This document shows, piece after piece, positions 3,703 to 54,668 of a stretch of 64,000 nt of DNA (positions are counted from its first letter, which is position 1; each line of letters starts with the position of its first letter). Both the position numbers and the translations under genes were made by a program. This stretch comes from Anaerolineales bacterium (lineage in GTDB: Bacteria; Chloroflexota; Anaerolineae; Anaerolineales; RBG-16-64-43). Below the pieces are notes generated by a model. That model saw only the letters and a list, made by a program, of their open reading frames with translations, did no database searches and was not told the DNA's origin. The stretch lies in contig JBEKSY010000014.1 of assembly GCA_049516595.1 (NCBI GenBank), positions 4,016-68,015 of the forward strand. Direction: 5' to 3'.

Positions 3703-4569
3703 CTAGAGGTCGCGCCGCTGAAAGATTCGAACGGACACCGCCAGGGAAGCAAAGAGATAGATCACCGCATAGGCGATCATCAGGAAGCTGGGAACGGAGA
3801 TGGTCCCGAATGGAGACATGCCCAGTGCCCCCGCCAGAGGGGTTTGCATCTCAAAGGCCGCACGGCGCCAGAGCGATTCGCTGGGGATGATCAGACTGGT
3901 AATGATTCCGACCTTGACCGCGGTCGGAATTTGCAGGAGCGAGCCGAATTGCTCAATCCATCCGCCCATGAAGGAAAGGCCCCAAAGACCGAACACAATG
4001 CCTCCGGTCGCCAGCGCCGGAAATGCACTGGAGCACGCGAGCGAGATGGTCATGATCAGTGCGGCTTCGAGATAGATCAGGGCCAGCCCAGCGACCAGGT
4101 GATCGGGTGTGTACCCTGTCTGAACGAGCACGCTCAACACGGTACCGCCGGCCATGAGCAGGACATAGAGTGCCAGGAGCCCGACGAATCCCAGCCACTT
4201 TCCAAGGACGACGTCGGACCGGCGGATCGGCTTGGTGACGATGGTCTGGATTGTGCCCGAGCTGATCTCCCCCGCCAGGGTGTCTGCGCCTAGCAGAGCC
4301 GCCATGGCGACGGAAAGGAAGGTGACGGCATAGAGCCCCGAGAGGAGCAGCAGGTTGATCCCCTCGGTGCGGGCAATCCGGGCCAGCCCCGGGCCGTTGC
4401 TCTGCGCGGAAAGGTTCGCCGCGCTCGTGCCGATCTGGGAGATGATGAAGTGAAATCCGGCGGTAAAAATGATCAAGAAGCAGACTCCCAGGACGACCCC
4501 TGTCAGGACAATCCGACGTCGAATGGCTTCCCGAAATGTCATGCGCGCCAGGACCCAGATGTTGTTCAC
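3703..4569 (-). CDS. ABC-2 type transporter permease
   Basis: Polytopic hydrophobic protein (about 6 TM segments). The N-terminus was trimmed from the 376-aa track ORF to a GTG at 4569 that overlaps the TGA of the upstream ATPase (GTGA). The upstream part of the track ORF is R/P/G-rich and overlaps the ATPase CDS. Confidence 0.75.
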   Translation of the reverse strand: MNNIWVLARMTFREAIRRRIVLTGVVLGVCFLIIFTAGFHFIISQIGTSAANLSAQSNGPGLARIARTEGINLLLLSGLYAVTFLSVAMAALLGADTLAGEISSGTIQTIVTKPIRRSDVVLGKWLGFVGLLALYVLLMAGGTVLSVLVQTGYTPDHLVAGLALIYLEAALIMTISLACSSAFPALATGGIVFGLWGLSFMGGWIEQFGSLLQIPTAVKVGIITSLIIPSESLWRRAAFEMQTPLAGALGMSPFGTISVPSFLMIAYAVIYLFASLAVSVRIFQRRDL

Positions 4570-5486
4570 AGCCCCCCATCCTTCCCAATCGTCTCCACGA
4601 AGATCTCCTCCAGGGACTTGCGATTGGGCACGAGGCTGTACACGGCCGCCCCGTTCGCCACGAGGTGACGCACGATCTCCGGCAGGGCCGACTCGCTTGG
4701 GACGGAGAGGCTCACCTGTTCGCCTTCCGCGTGGATGTCCTGCCCCCACTGCCTGAGCCCCTCGAGCGCTTGGGCGGAGAGGTTGCGCACGTGAAGGGTG
4801 GCCACGGTCTGCCCCGCCTCCAGAGAGCGCCACTCCATGACCCGGACGACTTCCCCATGGCGGATGAAGGCCACCCGGTCGCAGGTGACTTCGATTTCGC
4901 TGAGAAGATGAGAGTTCAAGAAGACGCTGGTGCCGTCGGAACGCAGCTCGTGGATGATATCTCTCACTAGGCGGCGGCCGATCGGATCCAGTCCCGAGGT
5001 CGGCTCATCGAGGAAAACCAGGGAGGGGCGGTTGAGCAGGGCCTGAGCCAGCCCGATCCGCTGCAACATCCCCTTGGAGAAAGTGTGCAGTTGTTTTTGG
5101 CGATACTCCGAGAGGCCGACTCGGTCCAGCAACTCGTCGATCCGCAGTTTCAGGTCGTGCGGGTTCATGTTCCAAAGCTGACCATGGAGCTCAAGGAACT
5201 CGCGCGCGGTAAGCCACTCCTGGAATCGGAAGTGCTCGGGGAGAAACCCCATGCGAGCCAAGGCCCGGCGATCGCCAATCGGCGCCCCCAGGACGGAGGC
5301 TGTGCCGGAGGTGGGTGCAATCAACCCCAGCAGCATCTTCATGGCGGTCGTCTTCCCCGCGCCATTGGGCCCCAGGAAACCGAAGACCTCACCCTGCTCC
5401 ACCAGCAGGGTGAGGTCCTTCACCGCGGACCGCTCGCCGAAAACCTTCCTCAGCTGGTCTGTACGAATCGCCGATCCGTCAGGCAT
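4566..5486 (-). CDS. ABC transporter ATP-binding protein
   Basis: Walker A GPNGAGKTT, signature FSKGMLQRIGLAQAL, Walker B LVFLDEPTSGLDP, H-loop NSHLLSE, plus a C-terminal accessory domain. Confidence 0.92.
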   Translation of the reverse strand: MPDGSAIRTDQLRKVFGERSAVKDLTLLVEQGEVFGFLGPNGAGKTTAMKMLLGLIAPTSGTASVLGAPIGDRRALARMGFLPEHFRFQEWLTAREFLELHGQLWNMNPHDLKLRIDELLDRVGLSEYRQKQLHTFSKGMLQRIGLAQALLNRPSLVFLDEPTSGLDPIGRRLVRDIIHELRSDGTSVFLNSHLLSEIEVTCDRVAFIRHGEVVRVMEWRSLEAGQTVATLHVRNLSAQALEGLRQWGQDIHAEGEQVSLSVPSESALPEIVRHLVANGAAVYSLVPNRKSLEEIFVETIGKDGGL

Positions 5487-5495
5487 GAGAGACCC

Positions 5496-6674
5496 CTACG
5501 GGAGTGAGTTCGCCATCTGGATCGCCCGTTGGGAATCGCTGCCCAGGCCGCTGATCCCGTAGATGTCCCCGCCTTTGACCCACAGCAGCCCGAATTCGGG
5601 AGCGTCGTCCGCCGGTCGCTGGATGAGGGTTCCCACCACCCCGTCCACATTCACCTGCTCGTAGGTCGCGGCATTCTTGGGAATGGGGATCACGAGCGTG
5701 GACGTCCAATCGACGGTTTTGGTAAAGGCCGCCGCCTGGTCACTGGTCATGCCCGTGAACTCCAGGCCGATTTGGGCTAGCTGGGCAACATCCAGGCTGG
5801 GTGTGGCGGTGACCGTCGGACTGGGGATCTCAGCCAGAATGACACAGTCCGGGTAACGGCGGCCGGCGGAACCGCCCGCACTGAGGTCGATTCCGGACTC
5901 GTCCGTACTTGGCGCAGGGCAGGTGCCGTAATCGACGCTGACCGCCGCGGGGATCTTCACGGAGACCAGCGCGCCGTCAATCGAGGCAGGCAGGCGAAGA
6001 TCGCTTCTCCCGGCCTCATCCAACAAGGCCTGCGCCTTGGTGCGATTGACCTTAAAGGTGAAGGCCGACGCGCCGACCACGCTGATGCGCGAGGGCGTCA
6101 TACCCTGGGGAAGACGGACCTTGAACCCTGCCAGCGGGCTGGCCTGAACCGCATCGGAAACCTCGACAGGGGCCCCGGGCTTCTGAGTCATCGTGACCGA
6201 GTCCGAGATCAGTTCACTGAGTTGCTTTCCAACCGTCCCCTGGCCCGTGAGTTGCTGCAATCCGGTAAAGTCGACCGGGATGACCGCCACATGCTCCACC
6301 CGGAACAGATTGAGCAACTTGTCAGCCAGGGCACGCGTGGTGGGAATCGTCAGGATCAGAACCAAGAGCACCGCAACCGGCAGGCCGTACTGGACTACGG
6401 GTGAATGAAGCGCTTTTCTTGCCATGCTTGAGCTCTCCTTTCGGGCGAGTCTTCGTTCGTGGAAATGGCTCAGGGCGGTCCGGGAGGAGAGATCCGCTGG
6501 CGGGTTGGCCTGGGAAAAGAGGGCGAGCCTGCCCGCGGTCGGTTGCCACTCCCGCCGCACCGCCTCGCGTCGTTCCTGACACCCTGCGCAACTTTCCAGG
6601 TGGCTCAGATTCGCTGAGCCGAGCTCTCCGTCGAGCGCCGCTCTCAACTGGCCATCGCTCAGGTGTTGGCTCAT
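5496..6674 (-). CDS. anti-sigma factor (zf-HC2, single TM, large extracytoplasmic domain)
   Basis: N-terminal H-x3-C-x2-C motif (HLESCAGCQ), one TM segment (VVQYGLPVAVLLVLILTI), and a ~270-aa C-terminal domain resembling DUF4367/LolA-like anti-sigma ectodomains. The ATG at 6674 overlaps the sigma-factor stop (ATGA). Confidence 0.75.
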   Translation of the reverse strand: MSQHLSDGQLRAALDGELGSANLSHLESCAGCQERREAVRREWQPTAGRLALFSQANPPADLSSRTALSHFHERRLARKESSSMARKALHSPVVQYGLPVAVLLVLILTIPTTRALADKLLNLFRVEHVAVIPVDFTGLQQLTGQGTVGKQLSELISDSVTMTQKPGAPVEVSDAVQASPLAGFKVRLPQGMTPSRISVVGASAFTFKVNRTKAQALLDEAGRSDLRLPASIDGALVSVKIPAAVSVDYGTCPAPSTDESGIDLSAGGSAGRRYPDCVILAEIPSPTVTATPSLDVAQLAQIGLEFTGMTSDQAAAFTKTVDWTSTLVIPIPKNAATYEQVNVDGVVGTLIQRPADDAPEFGLLWVKGGDIYGISGLGSDSQRAIQMANSLP

Positions 6675-7237
6675 GCATCCTCCTCCATCAGAGACCGGTA
6701 GCATTTCTCGAAGGCGCGTTCCGCGCGGAGCAGCAGTGGACCGACCGAATTTGGCGAGAGGCCCATGGCAGCGGCGATCTCTCGATAGGTCATGCCCGAG
6801 TAGCGCAGGATCAACAACTGGGCCTGATGAGAATTCATCCGGGCCAGCCCCATTCTGGCTAGGCGGCGCTCTTCTTCGCGGGCCTGGATCTCCGCCGGCC
6901 GATTCTCAGGGGCGTCCTCCAGGACGCCCACGCCAGCCTCGAGCTCGTAACGCTGGCGCCGCCTGTAGCTTCGAATTGAGCGAAGTCCCAAATTGCCCGC
7001 CACACGGGTGAGCCAGCCTCCCACATTGAAGCCTTCTGGCGGCTGCGGGCTTCGCTGGTACAGTTTCAGGAAGGCTTCCAATGCCAGATCCTCCGCTTCG
7101 GCTGGGTCCCCCACCAGCCCAAGGACCATCCGGTAAACATGCGTCCAGTGCTCCAAGAACAGGTTCTCAAAGGACGGGGACACCGGCATGGTCTGCGGGC
7201 TTGCGCGCGCGGCGGCAAGACTCTTGCGGAATCTCAT
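6671..7237 (-). CDS. RNA polymerase ECF-type sigma-70 factor
   Basis: Region 2 (HVYRMVLGLVGDPAEAEDLALEAFLKLY) and region 4 HTH (LRYSGMTYREIAAAMGLSPNSVGPLLLRA). The start is uncertain: ATG at 7237 or 7189. The track ORF start at 7369 looks over-extended. Confidence 0.85.
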   Translation of the reverse strand: MRFRKSLAAARASPQTMPVSPSFENLFLEHWTHVYRMVLGLVGDPAEAEDLALEAFLKLYQRSPQPPEGFNVGGWLTRVAGNLGLRSIRSYRRRQRYELEAGVGVLEDAPENRPAEIQAREEERRLARMGLARMNSHQAQLLILRYSGMTYREIAAAMGLSPNSVGPLLLRAERAFEKCYRSLMEEDA

Positions 7238-7770
7238 CGTGTGAAAGACGCCCTTGCGACCAATGTTTGTGCCCATCGCCTCGGAGGCCGCCCTGCAAGG
7301 ATAATCCCTTTCAATGAGAAATTGAGACATCGGGCATCTGTGCATGAGCCGGTTCAAGGGACAGGCCATCTAGGCGATGGGCGGAGGCGGCCCGAGAGCT
7401 CGGGCGCAATTGCAGTCCGCCAAGGTGGGGATCGCTGAGGGCCTTTCTCCGGGCAAACCCCTCAGGGCGCCCCTTGCGCCTCCAGGTACAGGGGAATAGC
7501 CCGCTCATTCTCGTCGCACGGAGGCTCAAGAAAGATCGAAGGCGCAGGCGAGACATCCGGGGCGGGCGTTCATCCGCCGCCCGCTCTGATCCTCACCCGG
7601 GGCCCCAAGATGGGAGGGTTCCTCCCCCAGAGAGCGGCGATGTGCCCTCGGCCCGGTTCGCCCCGATTCACTCAGAAGTGAACCGTCGTTTGCTGCTCCC
7701 CTTCCACCGACGGCGGAAGCGACCCGAGCTGCCGGGGGGAAATCGGCCCCCCGCGAGCACTAGGCGACAC

Positions 7771-8589
7771 TCAGGCGATGCGTCCACCCGGCAGCGGCGG
7801 TCCGCCGGCATAGATCTCTCGGACCTGAATCGCGCCGCTGCGTCCGGAGGCGCTCCAGGTGCCTTTCGCTTGATAGGAAACGGCCTCGAGGGTCAGGATG
7901 TTGGTCGCCACCAAGGCGCCCGGGGGCGGCTGGGGCAGCTCAGGGGCTCCGTTCCAGCAGACCAGGCCCGTATTTCCGCTCGGCTGCATCGAAATCGCCG
8001 GGACGACAACCGGGTAGCCCGTCGGACTCACCCAGGCCAGGACCTTCACCGCCGCCATCTTTGCGAATTCGCGCCGAACGGGCAGGGGCACCGGCACCCC
8101 CCCATCCCCACGCCCCCAGCCGCGGATCGCGCTGAGGCGGGCAAGAGTAAAGTCCCGCAGGACCTCCAAGCGAGGAATGGCAAAGGTCGCCTCGGCGGAT
8201 CGCAGCCGGATGACACCGGCATTTCGGATTCCGGTGTACGCGTTGTAGCGCAGGAGGGAGCTGCTCATCTGGCGATCCACGTAGGGCCCGCTGCGTTGAA
8301 ACTCGAGAAAATCGCCCGTGAGAATCCAACCCTGCAGATCGGTGGTGATCACCAGAATCCCAACGCGCCTGTCCTCCTCCAGGTTCTTGATACTCTTGCG
8401 CAGCAGGAAATTGCCGAAGGTGAGCGTGTCAGGCGCATCCTCGGCTGGCAGGAGCGTTATGCAGGGAACCACATTCGGCGCGCCGTCGGCGCTTCGGGTA
8501 GCCAGAAACTTAGGTGTCATCTCTCCGCGCAGGGCATCCAGCAAGCCGGGGGTGTCATTCAAGATGGACATGGTTGCCTCCGCTTTCAT
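7771..8589 (-). CDS. tandem split-barrel (pyridoxamine 5'-phosphate oxidase-like / flavin-binding) family protein
   Basis: 272 aa. Two repeats resemble the PNPOx-like FMN-binding split barrel (first: FLATRSADGAPNVVPCITL...VGILVITTDLQGWILTGDF; second: KVLAWVSPTGYPVVVPAISM...). The ATG at 8589 overlaps the activase stop (ATGA). The family call is by resemblance only. Confidence 0.65.
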   Translation of the reverse strand: MKAEATMSILNDTPGLLDALRGEMTPKFLATRSADGAPNVVPCITLLPAEDAPDTLTFGNFLLRKSIKNLEEDRRVGILVITTDLQGWILTGDFLEFQRSGPYVDRQMSSSLLRYNAYTGIRNAGVIRLRSAEATFAIPRLEVLRDFTLARLSAIRGWGRGDGGVPVPLPVRREFAKMAAVKVLAWVSPTGYPVVVPAISMQPSGNTGLVCWNGAPELPQPPPGALVATNILTLEAVSYQAKGTWSASGRSGAIQVREIYAGGPPLPGGRIA

Positions 8590-9503
8590 TGGGTCGCTCC
8601 GGACCAGCGGGCACACGGGACCAGATCGGCGGCGGTCTGCCAGGTGGAAACCATCGACTGCCGAGACAGCAGCGCGGCCGCCTCCAGCGGATAGGGAACA
8701 TCCAGGCGGTGATACTTGGGCCGCCCCAGGTTGGTGTAGGCCAGCAGATCCCAGCGCTTGACCGTAGGCAGTTCCCGCTGGATGAAGGCTCCCAGGGCCC
8801 GTATGTTTTCCGGATCGTCCGTGTAGCCGGGGATGATGGGTGTGCGAACCCACAGAGGAACACCTTGGGACGCCAAGAGGCGCGCGTTGTGCAAGATCAG
8901 ATCGTTGGCCGCCCCAGTGGCGGCTCGGTGTCGGTCCGGATCCATGATCTTGAGGTCATACAGGACCAGGTCCACCAAGTCGAGAATCCGTTCAAAGCGT
9001 TCGGGTGAGGCGGCGCCGCAGGTATCCAGCGCGATGTGCAGGCCCGCCCTGCGGCAGCGCGGCAGGACCTCGCTCAGGAAATCCTCCTGCAGCATAGGCT
9101 CGCCCCCGCTGAACGTGATGCCGCCGGCCGAGGTCTCGAAGAAGACCTTGTCCTTCAACAGTTCCTCCATCAGCTGCTCCGGGGTCCAGCGACGGCCAAT
9201 GACCTCCAGTGCGCCGCCTGGGCAGGCCTGGGCGCAGTCGCCGCAGACCGAACAGCGCTCCCGGTCAATGCGCATCCCGGAGGGCGTGAGGGTCAGCGCG
9301 TCGGCAGGGCAAGCGCCCAGGCAGGCGCGTGCTCCGATGCAGCGCACGTCGTACCACACCAGATCGGGCGCGGCCCGCAATCCCTCCGGGTTGTGGCACC
9401 AGGCGCAACGCAACGGGCAGCCTTTCAGGAAGACAGTCGTGCGGATGCCCGGTCCGTCTTCGGTGCTGAACTGCTGAATGTTGAAGATTAACCCGGTCGC
9501 CAT
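8586..9503 (-). CDS. glycyl-radical enzyme activating protein (radical SAM, with ferredoxin-like insert)
   Basis: GPGIRTTVFLKGCPLRCAWCHNPE contains the CX3CX2C radical-SAM cluster. It is followed by two Cys clusters (CIGARACLGACP and CSVCGDCAQACP) and a GGEP SAM-binding motif. Confidence 0.92.
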   Translation of the reverse strand: MATGLIFNIQQFSTEDGPGIRTTVFLKGCPLRCAWCHNPEGLRAAPDLVWYDVRCIGARACLGACPADALTLTPSGMRIDRERCSVCGDCAQACPGGALEVIGRRWTPEQLMEELLKDKVFFETSAGGITFSGGEPMLQEDFLSEVLPRCRRAGLHIALDTCGAASPERFERILDLVDLVLYDLKIMDPDRHRAATGAANDLILHNARLLASQGVPLWVRTPIIPGYTDDPENIRALGAFIQRELPTVKRWDLLAYTNLGRPKYHRLDVPYPLEAAALLSRQSMVSTWQTAADLVPCARWSGATQ

Positions 9504-9508
9504 ACCCG

Positions 9509-11911
9509 CTACAGCCGGTGGGCCTCTCGGGCGATGATCTCGTCCTGGATCTCCTTGCCCAATCCCACGAAATAAGCGTTGTAACCGGTGACCCGCACCA
9601 GCAGGTTGCGGTACTCATCGGGATGCTTCTGGGCCTCGCGCAGGGTGTTCGTGTCAATGACGTTTACCTGCAGACAGGTCCCGCCCACTTGGCCGTACGC
9701 GCGCAGGAGCCCCGCAATCTTCTCCCGCTGCTCGGGATCGCGCAGCAGGGAGGGGCTGAAGCTCATGGTGTGGCTCGCGCCGTTGGGGGCCGTTCTCAGA
9801 TCCAACTGCCCAACGCTCTTGATTACGGCGGTCGGTCCCCTGCGGTCTGCCCCGTTGACTGGGCACACCGCGTTCGAGAGGAACTGGCCGCGGCGGCGGC
9901 CGTCGGGTGTGGCGGCGGTCGCGGGGGCATAGGCGATCCAGTAGTTCCAGGAAAGGTAGCCGGCGCGATAACGCTTGCCGGTGGGAGCCGTGTGGCGGAA
10001 GGCTTCCTCCGTCCAGAAGCGGCTCACCTCGCGCGCCAGCTCGTCGGCTTCCGGGTCATCGTTGCCATACTTGGGGGCCTGATGGAGCAGCATCTGGCGC
10101 AGGCTCTCGTGCCCCTCGAAGTTGGCGCGCAGGGCGGCCAGGAGCTGAGACATTCCCAAGCGCCGATCCGCAAAAACCAGCTTGCGCACGGCGGCCAGGC
10201 TGTCGGCAGCGGTTGCCAGAGCGACCCCCTCCACCGTCAGGTAGCTAAAGCGGGCACCGCCGGCGTTCGCATCCCGGCCTGTTTCCAGGCAGCCGCCCAC
10301 CAGGGCGCTGACATAGGGCACGGGCTCCCAGCGCGCCCGCCCCGCATCCGCGAGGTTGTTCACGCGAATGATCCACCCCAGCAGGTGGCGGAGCTGCGTC
10401 AGGAAGGCCTGGCGGAAGTCGTCGAAGGAAGCGAAGGTTGTAGGGTCACCGGTGCGAGGGCCAATCTGGCGATCGGTTTGCATGTCGCGGCCATCATTCA
10501 GGGCGAGTTCCACGGCCTTCGCCAGATTCAGGTTGACGTCCACGGTCCCGGAGCGGTCGTCGCCCGCCAGGGTATTCTCCAGGCAACCCACCGGGGCGTA
10601 GTCCCACAGGCGGCCTTCGGGCAGCCCTTCCCAACGGAGTCCGGCGATCGCGTTTTCGTCGAAGTTGAGGAGAAAGGGCGAGCCCTGTGCCCCCGCCAGC
10701 ATTTCCACGATGCGCCGAAGCAGCCGATCCGGGGTGCGAGCGTGGAGGCGGATATTGGGCTTGGGCTCCAGCAGGTTAATCTCCTGGATGACCTCCAGCA
10801 TCAGGTAGGTGAGATCGTTTGAGGCGTCGTCCCCGTGCTCATCGGTCCCGCCGAGGGTGATCAGTTGACCAAAGGAGGAGTTGATGCCTTGACTTGTTCC
10901 TGTCCAGCCCTGGTAGTCGTAGACGTAGTTGTGCTTGATCCACCAGCATTCAAGCCACTCCTTGGCCTGGGCGCGCGTCAGGCGGCCTGCCACCAGGTCC
11001 GCCTGGTAGTAAGGTCGAAGGTACTGATCCACACGTCCTGGCGAGACCCCGGGGCCCGGATAGCTTTCCGCGGCGAGGAGCAGCATGTGGGTGGTCCAGA
11101 GCGCCTGCAGGGCTTCGGGGAAGGTTTCGGGCGGAAGCCAAGGGACCTTGCGCACGATGCGGGCGATTTCCCGAAGCTCTTCCCGGCGGGCCGGACTGGC
11201 TTCGCCCTGGGCCAATCGATCCGCTTCCGCGGCATATCGCTCGGTGAGCAGGCGCACCCCCTCAGCGCAAATGACGACGGCGCGGGCCTGGTCGCGCTGT
11301 TCGCGCGTGCTGGCCCGATCGTCAGCCATCGCTTGAGCCTCATCCCGAATTCCTTTCCAGCCGAGGCGCAGAGCCTTCGGGTAGTCGGGCACGAGATGAC
11401 CCGGCACGGCCGCGCAGTTTCCAACCCCCACGTCGTTGAGCGCGTGCCATTCTTTGAGGAACCTCTGCTCCTCCCGATCTCGGGCGCGGGCCTCTCCTTT
11501 CTTCAGGCAGCGAGAGAGGGCCGTGGAGAAATGGGAACCGACGATCAGCTCCCCTTCCAGAATCTGGACCGGCAGATCGTGGCTCACGACCTCACGGAAG
11601 AAAAGAGCTTGTCGCACGGCGAGCGGCTGCTCCCAGAATGCTGCTGGGAGTTGCACCCGCGCGGCCGCAGCCAGGAGATAGGACCGGAATCCTTTCTGGA
11701 ACAGGGCGACTTCTGGAACGTTCGTCCAGCTCCAGATCGAATAGACCATATCCCAGGGTGTGCCGGTGGTGTAGGACCGGACCTCGTTCGTATACTCCCG
11801 TTCGTAGAAGGACCAGAACTGGTCGCGCAGCTTCTTCACGCGGGGCGAGAGCGTGGGCGCGGCCGTCCATAGATCGGAAGGGGAAAGAGCGGCGCAGGAA
11901 TCCACAATCAT
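9509..11911 (-). CDS. glycyl radical enzyme (PFL2 / dehydratase-lyase type), substrate unknown
   Basis: 800 aa. The C-terminal glycyl-radical motif is RVTGYNAYF (Gly776, codon 9584-9586). The Cys loop is VGCLEN (Cys443, codon 10583-10585) with Glu two residues later, as in the GCVE loop of GRE eliminases. RBS GGAGGG lies upstream of the ATG at 11911. Confidence 0.92.
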   Translation of the reverse strand: MIVDSCAALSPSDLWTAAPTLSPRVKKLRDQFWSFYEREYTNEVRSYTTGTPWDMVYSIWSWTNVPEVALFQKGFRSYLLAAAARVQLPAAFWEQPLAVRQALFFREVVSHDLPVQILEGELIVGSHFSTALSRCLKKGEARARDREEQRFLKEWHALNDVGVGNCAAVPGHLVPDYPKALRLGWKGIRDEAQAMADDRASTREQRDQARAVVICAEGVRLLTERYAAEADRLAQGEASPARREELREIARIVRKVPWLPPETFPEALQALWTTHMLLLAAESYPGPGVSPGRVDQYLRPYYQADLVAGRLTRAQAKEWLECWWIKHNYVYDYQGWTGTSQGINSSFGQLITLGGTDEHGDDASNDLTYLMLEVIQEINLLEPKPNIRLHARTPDRLLRRIVEMLAGAQGSPFLLNFDENAIAGLRWEGLPEGRLWDYAPVGCLENTLAGDDRSGTVDVNLNLAKAVELALNDGRDMQTDRQIGPRTGDPTTFASFDDFRQAFLTQLRHLLGWIIRVNNLADAGRARWEPVPYVSALVGGCLETGRDANAGGARFSYLTVEGVALATAADSLAAVRKLVFADRRLGMSQLLAALRANFEGHESLRQMLLHQAPKYGNDDPEADELAREVSRFWTEEAFRHTAPTGKRYRAGYLSWNYWIAYAPATAATPDGRRRGQFLSNAVCPVNGADRRGPTAVIKSVGQLDLRTAPNGASHTMSFSPSLLRDPEQREKIAGLLRAYGQVGGTCLQVNVIDTNTLREAQKHPDEYRNLLVRVTGYNAYFVGLGKEIQDEIIAREAHRL

Positions 11912-12432
11912 CGGAATCCCTCCACGGATACTGAAACGGATCAGAGTGCGGCGGTTGCCGGGCGCCTGGCGTCAGCCTGCCCGCATTTCGTGATAAGAAT
12001 ACACCGAGGCCGGGCAGGAAGGTAGTGACGCGCATGACGGATTCGATCGCCGAGTGTCAGTCCGCACGCGGCAGGTCAAACCTGCGGGGAACGGCCCGTG
12101 ACGGTAGGTGCCTGCCGGCGCCAAGTCGGCCGTGGCAGGCAGAGCCGCCTTGGGTGGCATAGATCAGGCGCAAGACCCCCGCGAGGCATAACGCCGGACG
12201 ATGCCGGGCAGGCCGGGACCCCGTCGCGGAGGCCGGCAACTGGGATCCTCAGGGCGGCGTCGGTCACAGCCCACCCTGCCGCGGACGGCAAAGGCAAGTC
12301 GCCTGGCCGTGAGGAGGCGGGCATCGGCCTCAGGACTTCGCGGGTCTCCTGAACCCCCAGAAGGCTGCCGAGAAGATGGCCAGGGCGCGCTCCGAGCCCC
12401 GTCGGCCTTCGGACCCTCATCCAATCCGGTTT

Positions 12433-13107: not shown

Positions 13108-14107
13108 GGAATTCGGCCTCCTGTGCGGAGAATCACGGCGGAGATGTCGGCCGGTTCCAGGGATTTGAGGGGCGGTCTTGCCCCCTTGGGACCAGCCCTG
13201 CCGCATTGCTTGAGATGGATCGGCCCGGGCCCGGTAGACATGTCAGGCGATCCGGTCCCGGGCGGTGTTAAACCCATCCCACAAGCTCAATCGCGAACCG
13301 ATTGCGTTTCCCCCAATGCTGGAATTGTTGCTCCAACAAGAGATTCGGTCAACCGAAGGGTGGACGGGGAAGCGCTGGCCGAAGTCGAAGGCCGGTCCAA
13401 CGCTGGATCGGCTTGCCCCGGACTGAACGGGGAGATTCCTCGGTCAATTTGAGCGAGGTCCACCGTGTCTCTCCCTGAAGACAGGTCCAGGGTGGACGCG
13501 CGCAACGCAGGCCACATTGGAAGGACCTGGCGACGGTGCTTTCGCGGAGAGCCCACTTTGACATCGCCTACAATCCGGGATCGAAGCGCAAGGCAGATCA
13601 GGTCGAGGCCCTCGACGGGGGAAGATCGTCGTCTGCTGTCTGCTCCGCTAGCGCGGAAATGAGGGGAGTCCGTCCATTTCCGATCTCGCATGGAAGGGCA
13701 CGCCACTGCCGAGGTCGAGCCAACTAGGACAAAGTGCCAGCGGGCAACCGCCTTGCCGCCTAGGTTCGGTTTCGGCGAAACCGGGTGTCCGGAATAAGGA
13801 AGGCCACCCGCCTTGGGGTGGCCTTGCCATGCGTTTCTTGAGGGCAAAGGACATCGAGGGGGGTTCCGGGCCGCCTACCCAACCTGAAGCCGGGTGCGGT
13901 GGCCTGGTCCACGCGGGACACGTGCATCGGCCACGAGCTCCTCAATCCAAAGAACCCCGCGCTGCCTCGCGGTCTCTCTTATCGGCTCGCACAGACCTGC
14001 ATCGGCCTCCGACTGGGTCCAGGAAGGCTTCCCGACCCTAGGCGATCGCGACATCCCCCACAGTCTCCAGGGGGGATCCCGCCTCGAGCGTATTCCTCGA
14101 GCGCCGG

Positions 14108-16302: not shown

Positions 16303-17643
16303 TTAGCCGGTGGGGTCCAAGACTCGCCCCATGAAAAGAAGGCTTCCAGTCTGATCATCACGGATGAAGAAGATGAAGGGTCGGTCGACGGTGAAGATGA
16401 TTGGACCACCCGCTTCCGCCACACTCGCCTCCATGACTACCGCCGTGGCGGCTGCCGCCTCGGTGCCGTTCTCATCGACCGACACAAAGGCCTTGTGCAT
16501 CACGTTGCCGATGTACAGGTCGTGTTCCCCATCCATACCTGAGAAGTCGGCCCGGACCGGATCAAAGGCGTCTGTCATCCCCAGGGTTTTGAGCGTCTCG
16601 TTCAGATTGAAGGATGATTCGTAACTGAACTTCGGCAGGCTCAGGTCGACGGAGCCGTACTTCACGCTGCCGGCCAGGTCCGTGATCATGCCGGGATTCA
16701 GTTGCTGTTCGACCGATTGGAACTGACCCGAGTCCGGCAGAAGAATCCACATCGACAGGCTCCCGGTTTGGTAAGGGAGATCAATGGCCCTGTACCCGCT
16801 CATCAGCGCGTATCCAAACTTCCCCTTTTGGTTCATCATCGAGACCTTCACGGTCGAGCCATCCAATAGGTGGAAGGGTTCGGACTGGCTTGCTTTCTTG
16901 TCAAAGGAGCTCTGCCACCCGGCCTTGAAGTAGATGGCATTGGCCAGCACGAGACGCGTCAACGGGTCGATGGCACCGGCCGGGATCAAGTCAAGGATCT
17001 TCTGTTTGGTCTCATCGCTCACCCACTGGTTGATTGCCAGTCGAGCCGCCTCGGGGTTGGAAGTGAAATCCACCAGCCGCAATCCTGCCCCATAGTTCTC
17101 CGCGAGCAAGTCCAGAAAGTCGCTGCGGAACGGCAGGCTCTTTTGGCCCCAGAGGGAATTGGCAATGGTCAGCTCGAAGGGCGTACCTTCTTTCGAGGCC
17201 GCAGCGCGGCCCTGAAGGTCCTGCGAGTAGGCGTTGAAAGCCGGGTGCAGTGAGGATGGGGGAAGGGCAAAGTGCATGGTTCCGGCCATCTGGCTCGCGG
17301 TGTCTCCTTCGGCCCCGCCGAAGGTCATCGCGAGGGCGAGAGAGATGCTGTAGGGAGAAAGGAAGAGGTTCCCCTTTCCAGCGCGCAGCGATCGGTAAAG
17401 GTCGAAGGCGAACTGGGTATTTCCGGCTGCCAAAGCCCTGAGGTCCTCGGGTGGTACGGGCGGGTTCTTGGTGCGCGGCGCCTTCGACTGGGCGACCGCA
17501 ACGCTGGCAGGGCGAATATCTCCTGTCCCGGAAGGAATCGGCGTGCCGGCCGCCGGCGGGACAAAGGGCCTGGGTCCGCAACTGCTGGCTATTGTCAATG
17601 TGACGAGCGCGAGGGCAAATAGGGGTTGGCGGGTGTTTTTCAT
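16303..17643 (-). CDS. serpin family protein, probable lipoprotein
   Basis: Serpin core (NLFLSPYSISLALAMTFGGAEG) and an inhibitory-type hinge ENGTEAAAATAVVM...DRPFIFFIRD. The start was trimmed to the ATG at 17643 (GGAGGA RBS), giving the signal/lipobox MKNTRQPLFALALVTLTIASSC. Confidence 0.88.
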   Translation of the reverse strand: MKNTRQPLFALALVTLTIASSCGPRPFVPPAAGTPIPSGTGDIRPASVAVAQSKAPRTKNPPVPPEDLRALAAGNTQFAFDLYRSLRAGKGNLFLSPYSISLALAMTFGGAEGDTASQMAGTMHFALPPSSLHPAFNAYSQDLQGRAAASKEGTPFELTIANSLWGQKSLPFRSDFLDLLAENYGAGLRLVDFTSNPEAARLAINQWVSDETKQKILDLIPAGAIDPLTRLVLANAIYFKAGWQSSFDKKASQSEPFHLLDGSTVKVSMMNQKGKFGYALMSGYRAIDLPYQTGSLSMWILLPDSGQFQSVEQQLNPGMITDLAGSVKYGSVDLSLPKFSYESSFNLNETLKTLGMTDAFDPVRADFSGMDGEHDLYIGNVMHKAFVSVDENGTEAAAATAVVMEASVAEAGGPIIFTVDRPFIFFIRDDQTGSLLFMGRVLDPTG

Positions 17644-18031
17644 GGCGTCCTCCGCTTTAACACAGAGACGAGGCATTGTGCGAAAAGGTTCCCAACCGGG
17701 AACCACAGCCCTCCCCGTTTCTCCCGTCAGGGCGCCAAAGGGTGACGGTGGAGCTGGGGTCAAGGAGCGAGACGGAGAGGGAGCCAACGTGGGGTGGGCT
17801 GAAGGCTATGGACCGGGTCGTAACCAACCCCTCTGCGGTGGTGACCACCCAGGCACCCTCTATCTTGCCCTGATCCACCTGCCAGCGAGGAATCCAGCCC
17901 CGGGCGCGACATCACTTCCTGCGGCCTTGTAATCTAACTCTAAGGAAGGAGTTCATGGGACCGTCATCTTCTCATGGGAAACTGCAAAAGAAAGGACCGG
18001 AAGGCATCAGAGAGGCCCCGGGCCAGCGACG

Positions 18032-48923: not shown

Positions 48924-50555
48924 CTACTTGTGTGCCGCCGCGTGCCGGCTGCGCAGCAGCTTCTTATCTATCTTCGCAACGCTGGTCTTGGGGATCTCGT
49001 CGACGAAGACATAGCTGTCGGGCACCGACCAGTTGGTGATAACGCCTTCCTTCACATACTTGTTCAGGTGGCCTTTGAGCTCCTCTGCGGTCAGCTTGTT
49101 CTTGAACCCTTCCCGCGCCACGATGATGGCCTGCGGGCGCTCACCCCACTTCTCGTCGGGAATTCCGATGACCGCCGCCTCCGACACGCCCTCGTGCAGG
49201 CTGAGGAGATTCTCTAGCTCCAGGGAGACAATCCACTCGCCCCCGCTCTTGATCACATCCTTGAGGCGGTCGACGATTTGGACATACCCGTATTCGTCGA
49301 CGTTCGCCACATCCCCCGTGTGCATCCATCCGCCCGCCCACAACTCCTCCGAGCGTTGGGGCTCCTTGAAATAGGCTGGGGTCAACCACGGGGCCCGCAC
49401 GACGATCTCGCCTGTCTCTTTGCCGTCCCGGGCCACCTCCTTGCCCGTGGTGTCGACCACCTTCAAGTCGACCAGGGGGATGACAAACCCAGTCTTGATC
49501 GCCCAGTCCAGGCGCTTCTCCTCGCCCCAGTCCTTTTCCATGAATGGTTTGAGATTGGCAATGGTGAGGACCGGGCAGGTCTCGGACAGGCCGTAGCCGG
49601 CGTACACCTTGATTCCCAGTTTGGTCGCCTCCATCGCCAAGCCTTTGGGCAGTCTGGCTCCGCCGATGATCACCTTCCAGCGGCTCAGGTCGGCTTTTCT
49701 CACTTCAGGAGCGGTGACGATGGTTTGCAGAATGGTCGGGACGCAGTGGCTGAAGGTCACCTTCTCGCCCAGGATGAGGCGCAGGAGCATCGGAGGCTCA
49801 TACTTACCGGGATAAACCTGCTTGAGGCCGAACAGGGTGGCGACATACGGCATGCCCCAGGCATGGACGTGGAACATGGGCGTGATCGGCATGTACACGT
49901 CGGTCTTGTTCACCCCACCAAAGTTGCCCAGAGCCGAAAGAGTGATCGCGCCGCTCAGGGTATGCAGGCTCAGCTGCCGGTGCGTGAAGAAGACTCCCTT
50001 GGGTTGGCCCGTCGTCCCGGTGGTGTAGGATTGGGTCGCCAGGGTGTCCTCGTCGAAGTCAGGCAACTCCGAGAGAGGAGAGGCGCCCTCCAGAAGCTCT
50101 TCGTACTCCGCGTCCACCCACTTGATGGCTGGCTTCTCCTTCTTGTCGGTGATGAGGATGTACTTGCGAATCCCAGGCACCTTGGCGCGCAGGGCTTCCG
50201 CCAGCGGAAGAAAATCCTCGTGGAATATCAGCACTTCGTCTTCTGCATGGCCCACGGTGTATAGCAGATCGCCGGGTGCCAGCCGGGGGTTGATGGTATG
50301 CAGGACCGCACCCACGCCGGGAATGCCGAAATACATCTCCAGGTATCGGTGGCTGTCCCATTCGATAACCCCGACCCGGGTTCCTTTCTTCACTCCGAGC
50401 GCCACCAAGGCGCCACCCAGCCGGAGCACACGTTGGTACATTGTGCTGTAGGTGTGGCGAACCTGGTCGCGATAGATGATCTCCTGATCAGGCGCCCATG
50501 CCACACCCTGCTGGAGAATGCGCTTGAGCAGCAACTGGTAATCATACGCAGCCAT
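48924..50555 (-). CDS. AMP-dependent acyl-CoA synthetase (long/medium-chain fatty acid-CoA ligase family)
   Basis: 543 aa with the AMP-binding motif YTTGTTGQPKGV and later GYGLSE, TGD and SGGEWI motifs. RBS AGGAGGGAG. Confidence 0.9.
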   Translation of the reverse strand: MAAYDYQLLLKRILQQGVAWAPDQEIIYRDQVRHTYSTMYQRVLRLGGALVALGVKKGTRVGVIEWDSHRYLEMYFGIPGVGAVLHTINPRLAPGDLLYTVGHAEDEVLIFHEDFLPLAEALRAKVPGIRKYILITDKKEKPAIKWVDAEYEELLEGASPLSELPDFDEDTLATQSYTTGTTGQPKGVFFTHRQLSLHTLSGAITLSALGNFGGVNKTDVYMPITPMFHVHAWGMPYVATLFGLKQVYPGKYEPPMLLRLILGEKVTFSHCVPTILQTIVTAPEVRKADLSRWKVIIGGARLPKGLAMEATKLGIKVYAGYGLSETCPVLTIANLKPFMEKDWGEEKRLDWAIKTGFVIPLVDLKVVDTTGKEVARDGKETGEIVVRAPWLTPAYFKEPQRSEELWAGGWMHTGDVANVDEYGYVQIVDRLKDVIKSGGEWIVSLELENLLSLHEGVSEAAVIGIPDEKWGERPQAIIVAREGFKNKLTAEELKGHLNKYVKEGVITNWSVPDSYVFVDEIPKTSVAKIDKKLLRSRHAAAHK

Positions 50556-50878: not shown

Positions 50879-51822
50879 GCAAATCCAATGAGCGGGACAA
50901 CTGGAGAGCCCCTCGGCTCGCTGAATCGATCGTGCCTGACCCTTCAGGGAAAACTCCCGTCTTCCCGGCATGCCGGGGCTCAACCTAGCTATCGTCTCTC
51001 CAGGGTGCCGAGGCCGGGAGAGAGCCCTTGGCGAAGTTCCAGAGGCCGGGCACGCGGGTCTGCATCAACGATCCGGCCAACAGAATCCGCTATGATTTCC
51101 GACGGGCATCCCCATGCCGGAAGGATCGGGAGCAATTGGTCCTGGGTTTCAAGCAAATAGGTTTTCCCGCCTTTCCCATTCCGGGGACATTGCGCTGGTC
51201 TTAGGGTGTCGAATTGTCTTGGGTGGCGGACCTTTTGCAGAGTACTCTTGGATCGGGTTGTGGGAAGGACCGCGGCTCGGGCCATCCGGCAGGAATTGCA
51301 CGCATCGTGAGAGCAAACCCCGCCAGTCATGGCGGTCGTGACCATATACTGACTGGGTCCAGATGCCTTCCAATCGACACTAGGCGTAACTTGCCGGAGG
51401 GGCAGGGCGCGTTTCTGTCTCGTGACTGCCTCGGGCTCAATTCGGTGGAAGGTGGATGCTCAGGCCCGTTGTTGTTTGCCAGGCGCGGGAGATGTGACCG
51501 CAGCAATAGGATCCGCTTCGGCTCTTGAATCAAGCAGGTCTCGACGGGAGACTTGGCAGGCCGGGGAGGCTAGGATTGGGCTGATCGGATCGACAAGGAA
51601 GGGGCCCTGACCTCCTGGGGATCTCCTCTCTTGCTTGAACCGTGGCACAATAGCCGAAATGGGCCCCGCCTCCAAGTGGGCTGGATTCTTGGATGGATTC
51701 GGACAATCGATTAGGGAGCCTGCCCAGCAGAATCATGATGAGAGGCTGGCCGGGATTTGGGAGGCACTTTCAGTCGCTCGCCGCGGGTGTCCGTTCATTC
51801 TCTTGCTGCTCAACCTAAGCTC

Positions 51823-52578
51823 ATGGCCACCGGCTCCGTTTTCGACGTCAGGGAGTTTACGGTTCATGACGGGCCGGGAATCCGCACCACGGTCTTCTTG
51901 AAAGGTTGTCCTCTTCGATGTGCCTGGTGCCACAACCCGGAGGGTCAGTCGCGGGACCCGCAGCCGATGAGAAGCCGGGCCGGGACTCGACAGGTAGGGA
52001 TCGAGTATGCCTCTGGTGAGCTGGCCGACATCCTGAATCGTCAGTCTGTGATCCTGCGCCCGAATGAGGGCGGGGTTACTTTTTCGGGGGGTGAGCCGCT
52101 GATGCAGGCCGGTTTTGTTGCGGAGGTGATTGATCGACTGGAGGATTTGCATGTGCTGTTGGACACCTCGGGCTACGGCACCGAACGTGATCTGCGCCTG
52201 CTTTTGGATCGCGTCGACATGGTGTATTACGATTTGAAACTGATTGATGAAGGAGCGCACATCCACCACACCGGGTGCTCCAACCGTCCAATTCTGAGCA
52301 ATCTGCAGGTGCTGAGCAGGAGCGGCGTCCCGTTTGTCGTGCGCGTACCCCTCGTGCCGGGGCTGACGGATACGGATGAGAACTTGGCCGGGATCGCCCA
52401 GGCGATCAAGAACCTGCCCGGGCTGATGCATGTCGATCTCCTTCCGTACAACCGCGCGGCGGGAGCGAAGTACGGGGCGGCGGGAATGGAGTTTCACCCC
52501 GAGTACGATGAGGCTCATCCGGTCCGTGTGAATAGCCGAGTGTTCCTCGAGGCTGGAATGAAGGTGCGTCTGGCATGA
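51823..52578 (+). CDS. glycyl-radical enzyme activating protein (PflA-like, no ferredoxin insert)
   Basis: MATGSVFDVREFTVHDGPGIRTTVFLKGCPLRCAWCHNPEG, then directly ...GVTFSGGEPLMQ. The two extra Cys clusters seen in the 8586-9503 paralog are absent. The start is set by alignment with that paralog (both begin MATG). Confidence 0.9.
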   Translation: MATGSVFDVREFTVHDGPGIRTTVFLKGCPLRCAWCHNPEGQSRDPQPMRSRAGTRQVGIEYASGELADILNRQSVILRPNEGGVTFSGGEPLMQAGFVAEVIDRLEDLHVLLDTSGYGTERDLRLLLDRVDMVYYDLKLIDEGAHIHHTGCSNRPILSNLQVLSRSGVPFVVRVPLVPGLTDTDENLAGIAQAIKNLPGLMHVDLLPYNRAAGAKYGAAGMEFHPEYDEAHPVRVNSRVFLEAGMKVRLA

Positions 52579-54668
52579 ACCCGAGAATTGAAAGACTGAA
52601 ACTGCGGGTGCGTGATGGCGAACACCGCCCCCTTCGCGGGCAGGAACCTCTCCGCCTCCTCGAGGAATGTGAAGAGGAGCATCTGTCCTGGTCGAGGCGC
52701 GTGGCGCGATTGACCGTCCGTCAATGCGAGGCCGAGATCGTCGTGGTTTCTCCTGACGAGCGCATCGTGTTCACCCGCACCCTGCCAGCCACTGTCCCCG
52801 CCGTCTACTCGGGGGACGAATGGGATCGCCTTACCATGGGACGGACGTTGCACGAACTGGGACCGATCAGCAATATCTGTGCCGACTGGGGGAAGGTCCT
52901 TTCACAAGGCCTACTGGGGCGGCGGAAAGTCGCTCTGGCCTCCCGCAGTCGATGCCGTGAACACTCGGAGGCCGTCGAATTCCTGGAGGGTGCCATCGAG
53001 TCAATCGATGCCGTCCTGGCGCTGGCGGCGCGCTACGCCGAGACCGCCCGTCGCATGGGCCGTGGCGAGATTTTCGAGATCCTCACCCGGGTCCCCGCGC
53101 AGCCGCCGCGCACATTTCACGAGGCCCTGCAGTCCCTGCGTCTGATGCACGCCGTGGTCTGGCTGGGAGGCAACTACCATGTGGGGCTGGGTCGATTTGA
53201 TCAGTACATGTGGCCGTACCTGAAGGCCGACCTCGAGCAGGGACGCCTGGACGAGGCCGAGGCTTTCGATCTTCTGGCCGAATTCTTCATCTCGCTGAAC
53301 AAAGACAGTGACCTCTACCCCGGAGTCCAACAGGGGGATAACGGGCAAACCATCACACTGGGCGGCATGGACGGGGCGGGCAATCCTGCAGTCAACCCGT
53401 TGACCTCCCTGGCGCTGCATGTGTCCCGGGATGTGTGTTTGATCGATCCCAAGATCAACCTGCGCATTTCCGCGAGCACAGATCTCGAGCTGCTCACATT
53501 GGCAACGGAGTTGACGCGCAAGGGATTGGGATTCCCTCAATACTGCAATGATGACGTCGTGATCCCGGGCCTGGTGGCGTGCGGCTACCGTCTGGAGGAT
53601 GCCCGGGATTATGCCATCGCGGCCTGTTGGGAATTCCTGGTCCCGGGGAAGGCCATGGACGTTGTCAATATCGGGGCGGTATCCTTTCCCGCCGCCGTGG
53701 ACCAGGCCCTCCGAGATGGGTTCTCGGCTGGCGAGGATATGCCGCAGATGCTCCAGCGCGTGAAAGGGAACATCGCCCAGCAGGTAAGCGATCTGGCCTG
53801 CGCCTACGAGCGCCTGCTTCTGCCGCCCGCCCCGTACTATTCGGTCCTGATGACAGACTGCCTGGAGGAGGGGCGCGACATCTCGGAAGGGGCCCAATAC
53901 AACAACTTCGGAATCCACGGAGCCGGCTCGGCGAATGCCGCTGATGCGCTGGCAGCCATCCAGGAGTTTGTGTTCCGGGAAAAGAGCGTTCAGCCAAGGG
54001 AAATTCTGGCCGCCCTGGATGCCGATTACGAGGGTTTCGAGGATTTGCGGGTGAAGCTGGCAGAGAAGGGGCCCAAGACAGGAAACGATGACGATCGGGC
54101 AGATCGCTTCCTGGTCGCATTGTTCCAGATGCTGGCGGAGGCCTGTGAGGGCTATGGAACCACCAGCCGAAAAGGAATCCTGCGTCCGGGATCAGGCTCG
54201 GCGATGTATTACCTCTGGCTGGCGCAGGGCCACCCAGGCATGCGTGAGCCGCAGGTGGGCGCAACCGCAGAGGGGCGTTGCAGCGGCCGACCCTTCGGAG
54301 CGAATCTGGCTCCCTCTCAGGGGGTGCAAATCCGCGGCCCGTTCAGTCTGCTTCTTTCCTACAGTAAACTGGACTACCGGCGAATCTGCAACGGCGGACC
54401 GATCACGATGGAACTCTCCGACTCGGTTTTTCGAGATGACGAGTCGGTGCGCAAGGTGTCTCTCCTAATCCGAGCGTTCGCCCAGCTGGGGTGTCAGCAG
54501 TTGCAACTCAACAGCGTCAATGTCGAGACTCTTCGGGATGCCAAGATCCATCCGGAGCTTCACAAGAACCTGATTGTCCGTGTGTGGGGCTGGAGCGGGT
54601 ATTTCTGCGAGCTCGCCCCCGAGTACCAGGATCAGATCATCGGGCGCCATGTGTTTGCGGCCGGGTGA
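52575..54668 (+). CDS. glycyl radical enzyme, short form (697 aa), substrate unknown
   Basis: The C-terminal glycyl motif is RVWGWSGYF (Gly672, codon 54588-54590). The Cys loop is ARDYAIAACWEF (Cys351, codon 53625-53627) with Glu at +2. The ATG overlaps the activase stop (ATGA at 52575-52578). Confidence 0.88.
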   Translation: MNPRIERLKLRVRDGEHRPLRGQEPLRLLEECEEEHLSWSRRVARLTVRQCEAEIVVVSPDERIVFTRTLPATVPAVYSGDEWDRLTMGRTLHELGPISNICADWGKVLSQGLLGRRKVALASRSRCREHSEAVEFLEGAIESIDAVLALAARYAETARRMGRGEIFEILTRVPAQPPRTFHEALQSLRLMHAVVWLGGNYHVGLGRFDQYMWPYLKADLEQGRLDEAEAFDLLAEFFISLNKDSDLYPGVQQGDNGQTITLGGMDGAGNPAVNPLTSLALHVSRDVCLIDPKINLRISASTDLELLTLATELTRKGLGFPQYCNDDVVIPGLVACGYRLEDARDYAIAACWEFLVPGKAMDVVNIGAVSFPAAVDQALRDGFSAGEDMPQMLQRVKGNIAQQVSDLACAYERLLLPPAPYYSVLMTDCLEEGRDISEGAQYNNFGIHGAGSANAADALAAIQEFVFREKSVQPREILAALDADYEGFEDLRVKLAEKGPKTGNDDDRADRFLVALFQMLAEACEGYGTTSRKGILRPGSGSAMYYLWLAQGHPGMREPQVGATAEGRCSGRPFGANLAPSQGVQIRGPFSLLLSYSKLDYRRICNGGPITMELSDSVFRDDESVRKVSLLIRAFAQLGCQQLQLNSVNVETLRDAKIHPELHKNLIVRVWGWSGYFCELAPEYQDQIIGRHVFAAG

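Follow-up and report, generated by a model that had tools for sequence, protein, structure and literature searches.

The DNA analysed here is a stretch of 64,000 nt (the window) from an Anaerolineales (Chloroflexota) genome of SPRUCE peat, and coordinates are positions within it unless a homologous locus (L001, L002 and so on) is named. Three co-directional genes on the minus strand encode a glycyl radical enzyme (GRE; 9509-11911), a GRE-activating radical S-adenosylmethionine (SAM) enzyme, here called the activase (8586-9503), and a third protein whose open reading frame (ORF) ends at 7771, here called the partner. This arrangement, and the 5-nt gap (CGGGT) between the GRE and activase genes, are as described in an earlier sequence-only reading of this DNA. 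In anaerobes GREs rank with the most abundant enzyme families, and for the majority of their clades no function has been assigned. We show that the GRE clade found at this locus, its activase and the partner form a conserved three-component system that is co-inherited across phyla. Close relatives of the locus are L007, L010, L011 and L014, with protein identities of 93-97%.

The GRE comprises 800 aa, and its gene is preceded by a GGAGG Shine-Dalgarno sequence (11919-11923, minus strand) that lies 7 nt before the ATG and is conserved in L014 and L008. It belongs to the GRE superfamily, with a PFL-like barrel (PF02901, 464 bits), a C-terminal glycyl radical domain carrying RVTGY (PF01228, 98 bits) and a Cys443 loop; the translation places Gly776 in RVTGYNAYF and Cys443 in VGCLEN, as had been proposed. 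Within the superfamily it falls in the PFL2 subfamily, with a TIGR01774 score (518 bits) below the cut-off of 678. Its scores are far below every equivalog cut-off of NCBIfam, and it matches no assigned family. Its distance to all solved GREs is about the same (300-400 bits), with the glycerol/propanediol dehydratase 1R8W (380 bits) no closer than the others, and it shares only about 33% identity with any characterised GRE. Its supposed position outside the clades of known function thus stands. Identity to orthologs is 75-96% within Anaerolineae and drops to 55-60% in other phyla. The clade is large and strongly conserved, the best 120 database matches all being at least 75% identical to the GRE; members of the clade have generic names only, and the clade recurs in metagenomes from peat, sediment and other anoxic sites.

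The C443-L-E445 loop aligns with the CXE loops of glycerol/propanediol dehydratase (GDH; C433/E435), CutC and HypD, which places the GRE in the CXE, or eliminase/isomerase-type, class. His172, aligned with GDH His164, and Thr456, aligned with CutC Thr502, are both kept. P287-G288 replaces the GDH pair H281-S282, with P287 at the position of HypD D278, and lies within the clade-specific segment AAESYPGPGVSPGR; NQGINSSFGQLITLGG and DRSGTVDVNLNLAKAVEL are also segments of the clade's own. GCLENT is kept in 36 of 40 loci, and 88-100% of the fetched loci retain the catalytic motifs.

Five assigned functions were considered for the GRE and rejected. HypD fails by its score (NF043068, 449 bits against a cut-off of 1100) and by Pro287 at the place of Asp278, a residue reportedly given an acid role in HypD by Backman et al. 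in 2020. The B12-independent glycerol/propanediol dehydratase is excluded since, although the equivalent of His164 is kept, the diol-binding pair His281/Ser282 is replaced. The choline trimethylamine-lyase CutC gives 394 bits against 1050 (TIGR04394). The C-S lyases (IslA/IseG/HpsG) and HpfG are rejected at 441 bits for NF048011 (HpsG) and 392 bits for NF048009, each against a cut-off of 1000. The sulfonate anchor of C-S lyases is Arg/Gln/Arg (PMC13450708), and the GRE has Ala168 and His172 at the positions of IslA R189 and Q193, a match made by coordinate offset rather than by rigorous alignment and indicative only. Finally, pyruvate formate-lyase is rejected by a loop, GCLE, without adjacent Cys-Cys and by a score of 99 bits against 994 (TIGR01255). 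Since the CXE motif is retained in all GRE eliminases and isomerases, where its Glu hydrogen-bonds the substrate hydroxyl (Imrich et al. 2026, PMC13450708), the GRE is filed as an enzyme predicted to work like an eliminase or isomerase on a hydroxylated substrate, outside every assigned family. Beyond Cys443, Glu445 and His172, its pocket is unlike that of any assigned enzyme.

The activase comprises 305 aa and starts 5 nt after the GRE stop. It is a member of the GRE-activating radical-SAM enzymes (TIGR02494, 328 bits against a cut-off of 174), with a Pfam Radical_SAM match and the cluster motif C29-x3-C33-x2-C36. A ferredoxin insert gives Fer4 matches at residues 54-100 and is of the two-cluster type, with seven invariant cysteines in a paired alignment of 13 rows (Cys55/61/65 and Cys84/87/90/94). 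The C-terminus (8586-8645, residues ~286-305) is a clade-conserved tail with an invariant W300-S-G followed by A-T; it extends past the region matched by TIGR02494, and the distant homolog of L096 retains it. This tail is a possible docking element. PFL-AE too has about 20 residues past the aligned core, and the tail is not clearly an extension.

The start of the partner differs in part from what was first read. The ATGA overlap with the activase gene at 8586-8589 is present, but its ATG (8589), which would give a protein of 272 aa, is not a conserved start, being TTG in L014 and CTG in L008. All homologs begin instead at the Met that corresponds to the ATG at 8571-8569, 18 nt downstream. A junction comparison of 12 loci revealed a conserved GGAGG Shine-Dalgarno sequence (8577-8581, minus strand) 5 nt upstream of this second ATG. 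Because the overlap ATG is variable while the downstream ATG and the GGAGG are conserved, the partner most likely comprises 266 aa (7771-8571, minus strand), starting 14 nt after the activase stop; the end of the ORF is unchanged. In other lineages the conserved start overlaps the activase stop by 1 or 4 nt; packing of the genes is tight in both cases. Residue numbers below follow the 272-aa form.

The analysis confirms that the partner is built of two split β-barrel repeats related to FMN (flavin mononucleotide)-binding proteins and PNPOx, as the sequence-only reading had it. An hhalign comparison of the N-terminal with the C-terminal half of the family gave E = 6.5e-6, and an AlphaFold model built from a 29-sequence alignment (pLDDT 85, pTM 0.86) comprises two β-barrel halves. 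We compared this model with the PDB using Foldseek. The matches, with values from 1e-6 to 1e-4, include HupZ (1e-6), the Desulfovibrio vulgaris FMN-binding protein (8e-6), F420-dependent FDORs and PNPOx-like proteins, and each spans about 125 residues, that is, one half. No solved structure with the full tandem arrangement was found in this search, the full-length TM score being about 0.3. From the half-length matches and the similarity of the two halves, the partner is, as modelled, a fused pseudo-dimer with the split-barrel fold. Family assignment is closer to the line: the Pfam PNPOx_N match of the window protein scores 27.6 bits against a gathering score of 28.1, over residues 28-107 only, whereas most homologs carry a precomputed PF01243 match.

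The two halves have diverged. The N-terminal half alone has a PNVVP strand and an R64-K65-SIKNL..RVGILV helix (R64-K65, N69-L70, R75-V), which we take to resemble the flavin- and phosphate-binding elements of FMN-binding protein and PNPOx. It also carries a family-specific invariant insert, QMSSSLLRYNAYTGIRNAG (LLRYNAYTGxRxAG), modelled with lower confidence as two short helices and unique to the partner among split-barrel proteins. The C-terminal half is degenerate and ends in an invariant YAGGPPxPGG tail of low model confidence. With the flavin-phosphate motif in the N-terminal half only, the partner probably has a single composite cofactor site, covered by the RYNAYTG insert and the GGPPxPGG tail. 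No conserved cysteine or metal motif is present among the 88 invariant columns of the 29-member alignment, and no NAD(P)H domain is recognisable in the protein. The partner is not a HiPIP- or rubredoxin-like GRE small subunit, as it has no invariant cysteine and adopts a split-barrel fold, and it is not a flavodoxin, as it gives no flavodoxin match in Pfam or NCBIfam and its Foldseek neighbours are split barrels. There is no evidence that the likeness between its RYNAYTG and the RVTGYNAYF of the GRE is meaningful, or that its C-terminal GGRVA mimics the Gly loop.

Linkage of the partner to one GRE clade

The partner family is well conserved, with a mean column identity of 74% among 29 members that are each 64-83% identical to the window protein, and its motifs persist in homologs at 29-51% identity. 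The family is also small: among 1.84 billion proteins it has 205 representatives at 50% clustering, almost only in GRE context, which sets it apart from housekeeping families. We collected loci from both sides of the association. A metagenome scan with the family alignment, together with look-ups, gave 79 distinct loci selected by the partner, of which 62 were informative in having at least 300 nt of upstream sequence. An activase gene lies upstream on the same strand in 48 of these 62, directly in 38 and with inserted genes in 10, and is missing in the other 14. Several of the latter (L030, L031, L045, L050, L066) are short contigs, their short upstream regions filled by M24-like, GH13 or aminotransferase genes. 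The same genes separate activase and partner in longer loci, so these apparent orphans are uninformative.

In the other direction, four GRE orthologs on long contigs were picked regardless of the partner. In all four loci the same-strand cluster ends with a partner ortholog (64-68% identity), while the intervening genes vary (transglutaminase-like, adenosine deaminase, GH13, PDDEXK, DinB/MST, methyltransferase). The partner is thus present at orthologous GRE loci, as the sequence-only reading would have it.

Distant partner subfamilies, at 29-43% identity, come from named sources in Deltaproteobacteria, Polyangia, Dehalococcoidia, Nitrospiraceae, Phycisphaerae and Hydrogenedentes. Each of the four distant homologs that were looked up is clustered with a GRE of this clade, its activase or both: GRE, activase and partner in L096; a fragmented GRE, activase and partner in L094; GRE and partner with no activase between them in L097; and activase and partner beside a non-GRE secreted protein in L095. 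The GREs of the distant loci are 55-60% identical to the window GRE over the full length and share its distinctive motifs. The other GRE operon of the window (activase 51757-52578, GRE 52575-54668) has no split-barrel partner. Linkage in both directions and across phyla shows that the GRE clade, the activase and the partner are co-inherited, and supports the earlier view of the split-barrel protein as a functional part of that system.

Several single loci deserve mention. P0257, a protein of 518 aa that might be taken for a Rosetta-stone fusion of GRE and partner, was rejected as such: it joins a truncated GRE (approximately residues 280-650 of the clade) to the C-terminal half of a partner homolog, and most likely reflects an assembly artefact or a deletion that runs from the end of the GRE through the activase into the start of the partner. 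In L001/L002 (9333-10801) an orphan partner, 67% identical and with its motifs intact, directly follows a same-strand gene for a nitroreductase-family flavoprotein, with no GRE or activase within 10 kb. L097 (5598-11013) has, after the partner, an AcsV-type corrinoid activation protein (648 bits, cut-off 800) and then a ParA/CbiA-like ATPase. The former was considered as a RACo-like source of low-potential electrons and rejected, since it is an AcsV-type corrinoid activator that probably belongs to a neighbouring cluster. Finally, L009 (contig CAVWAQ010000004.1) has the same three-gene cluster at 69-80% identity, with the GRE split by a frameshift, on a 110-kb contig binned as Candidatus Bathyarchaeota; its presence in an archaeal bin could reflect mis-binning, sequencing error or horizontal transfer.

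Possible roles of the partner

The activation and thiyl-radical chemistry of GREs is established, and it can be laid over the motifs found here. The activase, once reduced by an external donor, would cleave SAM and abstract a hydrogen from Gly776, and the resulting radical would pass to Cys443 as a thiyl radical. The Cys443 thiyl would then abstract a hydrogen from the carbon bearing, or next to, a hydroxyl held by Glu445, with His172 at the position of the proton donor of glycerol dehydratase, and elimination or ring opening would give a carbonyl or imine product. The partner, either on its own or in complex with the GRE, would act as an FMN-dependent oxidoreductase and catalyse a two-electron conversion of the product or substrate of the GRE, which would make it the sole pathway enzyme conserved in the operon.

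The role that we favour, if at somewhat under even confidence, is accordingly framed as follows: the partner may be a reaction-linked flavin enzyme or subunit tied to the chemistry of this clade and not to generic activation. A tie to the chemistry of the clade is suggested because the partner follows one GRE clade in several phyla, and because neither the other GRE operon of the window nor the characterised systems with this insert in their activases have it. A reaction-linked function is preferred because the partner gene is the only conserved non-core gene, like that for pyrroline-5-carboxylate (P5C) reductase beside HypD, a precedent for a product reductase adjoining a GRE (PMC8264950).

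A number of observations weigh against this role. The partner gene overlaps or abuts that of the activase in most loci, and L095 pairs the two with no adjacent GRE. A mirror-tree analysis of 25 loci does not separate the GRE from the activase, the partial r of the partner being 0.40 with the former and 0.31 with the latter. There are clear orphans, confined to L001, L016 and L062, with no GRE within 6-10 kb. Flavin binding is predicted from the fold and a single motif, with the window protein falling 0.5 bit short of the Pfam PNPOx_N threshold, and the closest structural analogues are small FMN or heme carriers, not metabolic enzymes. Finally, the recurrent accessory genes (adenosine deaminase, GH13, M24-like, class-III aminotransferases) make no pathway.

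The position of the gene next to that of the activase leads to a second explanation, the main rival, which is less probable. The partner could be a dedicated reductant for activation, a flavodoxin surrogate docked on the activase, that passes single electrons (FMN semiquinone/hydroquinone) through the clusters of the ferredoxin insert to the radical-SAM cluster, for SAM cleavage and oxidation of Gly776 to its radical. The packing of the partner gene against, or its overlap with, the activase gene in 38 of the 48 linked loci fits this model, as does the activase-partner pair of L095. The protein itself would suit the task, as in structure it comes closest to the small D. vulgaris FMN-binding protein and it has no NAD(P)H domain, and the orphan partner of L001 follows a nitroreductase-family flavoprotein. 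Moreover, a GRE activase depends on electrons from an outside source, supplied by flavodoxin in E. coli (PMC13450708), and for GRE microcompartments it has been proposed that redox helpers are encoded at the locus (PMC6325248). However, the partner occurs with a single GRE clade only, the same ferredoxin insert is found in many GRE activases that function without such a protein, and the other activase of the window has none. It is also retained with the clade in phyla such as Deltaproteobacteria. Generic flavodoxins or ferredoxins are, we would expect, available there. In L097, moreover, the partner follows the GRE and not an activase, and unrelated genes stand between activase and partner in about 20% of loci.

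A bolder proposal, which we regard as improbable, would make the partner an integral redox subunit that feeds reducing equivalents to the GRE for a net reductive elimination, or else the first flavin subunit of a GRE that controls formation or quenching of the glycyl radical. If the redox-subunit version were true, a PFL2-class enzyme would work like a ribonucleotide reductase (RNR) outside the RNR family, with a flavin in place of formate or thioredoxin.

In another reading, also improbable in our estimate, the partner would be a non-catalytic GRE subunit like BSS β/γ, HPAD γ or MASS δ, controlling solubility, movement of the Gly loop, access to the substrate channel, or quenching and protection of the radical, perhaps through its disordered C-terminal tail. 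Strict co-inheritance with one GRE clade and the direct adjacency of GRE and partner in L097 would fit such a subunit, as would the invariant, low-confidence YAGGPPxPGG tail, and known small subunits regulate radical installation and persistence (PMC13450708). Against this, the fold and size of the partner are unlike those of the known small subunits and it has no conserved cysteine or metal motif, while its retained flavin-phosphate motif points to a cofactor role. The tail, for its part, may simply close the partner's own flavin site. In the D. vulgaris FMN-binding protein the last residue, Leu122, presumably lies against the flavin. It is the target of mutant studies, as recorded in PDB titles. 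That the partner is a chance or loosely linked neighbour, an independent PNPOx-like enzyme, is scarcely credible: three long loci have it without a GRE and operon middles are fluid in these genomes, but the linkage runs in both directions and across phyla, down to 29-43% partner identity, in a small family essentially confined to GRE context.

Leader, accessory and neighbouring genes

A non-coding spacer of 521 nt (11912-12432, minus strand) separates the upstream MBL-fold gene from the GRE gene. It had been described as an ORF-free leader of 520 nt containing two hairpins with a common CCTGCC/GGCAGG core, and a test for a riboswitch was suggested. Mechanical ORFs do exist in it; nevertheless, indels of 5, 7, 3 and 8 nt relative to L014 are not all multiples of three, so the leader is non-coding. 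The two hairpins also exist, but both lose pairing without compensation in L014, the closest alignable relative. A structured regulatory RNA sensing the GRE substrate would account for the length of the spacer, for the shared hairpin core and for the local enrichment of the hexamer (seven copies against 0.94 expected). The hexamer, however, reaches eight copies in another 521-nt segment, and the GC content of the leader is 68%. Rfam gives nothing at the gathering threshold for the leader, only sX5 at E = 0.8, and its fold energy is that of shuffled sequences (z = -0.19). The leader can be aligned in L010, L011 and L014 (81% identity) and, by blastn, over a 66-nt patch in L008, and has no detectable similarity to the leaders of the other orthologous loci, 25 or more in number. 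The spacer thus shows no sign of a conserved structured RNA, and a riboswitch is very improbable.

The only block of the spacer that is kept in the window, L014 and L008 lies at 11994-12060 (minus strand), with the core GTCACTACCTTCC...CGGTGTAT.CTT. It is probably a promoter or operator, which would imply a 5' untranslated region of about 80 nt. A sigma-70 consensus scan of the leader found nothing on the minus strand.

The genes that recur near the operon encode adenosine deaminase, GH13, M24/creatinase-like and SCP2 proteins, class-III aminotransferases, and transglutaminase-like, DinB and methyltransferase proteins. Inference of a substrate from these genes (ectoine, taurine, purine or anhydro-sugar) was rejected, since they form no coherent pathway. 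Adenosine deaminase (TIGR01430, 305 bits against a cut-off of 216) is encoded between GRE and activase in at least four lineages (L051 6343-7374; L056 5498-6526; L089 2028-3053; L090 12315-13340), and may be a hint of a nucleoside-related substrate or a hitchhiker. Genes for an SCP2-like protein of 132 aa and for a creatinase/M24-like protein of 408 aa, the latter with only weak similarity to ectoine hydrolase or prolidase, are repeatedly found just upstream of the partner gene, with or without a visible GRE (L016 4559-6267; L051 8340-9989; L056 7468-9102; also L030, L031, L045 and L053). Class-III aminotransferases, HemL-like or putrescine-aminotransferase-like and under the curated cut-offs, lie a few kb from the operon in about nine distinct loci (L003/L004, L005, L023, L024, L028, L031, L035, L043, L044, L093), often with a PadR regulator, a small membrane protein and MFS transporters.

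In the second GRE operon of the window (51757-56084, plus strand), the gene for an activase (273-aa ORF) without a ferredoxin insert overlaps that of a short, 697-aa GRE with Gly672 in RVWGW and C351-W-E353. This second GRE is also below all equivalog cut-offs. A cyclopropane-fatty-acid-synthase-like methyltransferase gene follows, and a long-chain acyl-CoA ligase gene lies upstream (48924-50555, minus strand). Downstream of the partner (4566-7369, minus strand) are an ECF-type sigma factor (6671-7369), a 402-aa putative anti-sigma or membrane protein with no family match (5496-6704) and an ABC ATPase (4566-5486), a block that is syntenic in L007, L010, L011 and L014. Further upstream, about 900 nt between the MBL-fold and fatty-acid-hydroxylase-family genes (13207-14107) contain only mechanical ORFs, and a 494-aa ORF (16303-17787, minus strand) has a full-length serpin domain (396 bits).

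Comparison with known systems

A GRE with its activase is a known combination, whereas an obligatory tandem split-barrel, flavin-type third component in an unassigned, widespread clade is new. Such a component has no place in the current view of GRE architecture, made up of a catalytic subunit, an activase and sometimes small iron subunits. If the partner is linked to the reaction, the clade could represent a GRE reaction of a new kind, coupled to a flavin step, in Chloroflexi carbon cycling; if it is the reductant, it could answer how GRE activases obtain their electron in organisms and contexts that use a donor other than flavodoxin. The association is solid and, for specialists, unexpected, and the three genes form a compact expression unit that is directly testable. 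Full-text literature searches returned no paper that links glycyl radicals with PNPOx and nothing relevant on a GRE with a split-barrel partner, and those on Chloroflexi or Anaerolineae GREs gave only hydrocarbon or microcompartment contexts.

The sequence-only reading had recognised no counterpart of the partner in characterised GRE systems, and a 2026 review agrees: small subunits are observed only in HPAD, BSS and MASS and are all HiPIP- or rubredoxin-like (Imrich et al. 2026, PMC13450708). Like the partner, these subunits (HPAD γ; BSS β and γ; MASS β, γ and δ) are co-encoded with, and specific to, one type of GRE. They are, however, iron proteins of less than 100 aa, whereas the partner has about 266 aa, a tandem split β-barrel and no conserved cysteines.

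Flavodoxin is named in that review only as the reductant of E. coli PFL-AE (PMC13450708). In this case, and in the proposals made for PduS/flavodoxin in microcompartments, an FMN protein, sometimes encoded at the locus, gives the electron for activation. Flavodoxin has an α/β fold and is a general cellular carrier that is not co-inherited with one GRE clade, in contrast to the split-barrel partner.

The D. vulgaris FMN-binding protein, HupZ/HugZ, PNPOx and the F420-dependent FDORs have the same fold as each half of the partner. These proteins are homodimers of chains of about 120-150 aa with two sites, whereas the partner has two diverged halves fused in one chain with the motif in only one of them, and a C-terminal tail that is unique to it.

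The GRE 1,2-eliminases and isomerases (glycerol/propanediol dehydratase, HypD, CutC, IslA/HpsG, HplG, YbiW/PflD) have the same PFL2-type fold, RVxG(Y) motif and Cys-x-Glu loop as the GRE described here, and likewise have an activase with a ferredoxin insert encoded alongside. They differ in having no flavoprotein-like partner, which is conserved here. Among them, HypD with pyrroline-5-carboxylate reductase provides the model for the reaction-linked role that we favour, namely a GRE encoded beside a reductase that takes its product. P5C reductase is an NAD(P)H-dependent Rossmann enzyme that is not restricted to HypD loci, whereas the partner is a split-barrel protein of flavin type that occurs almost only with this clade.

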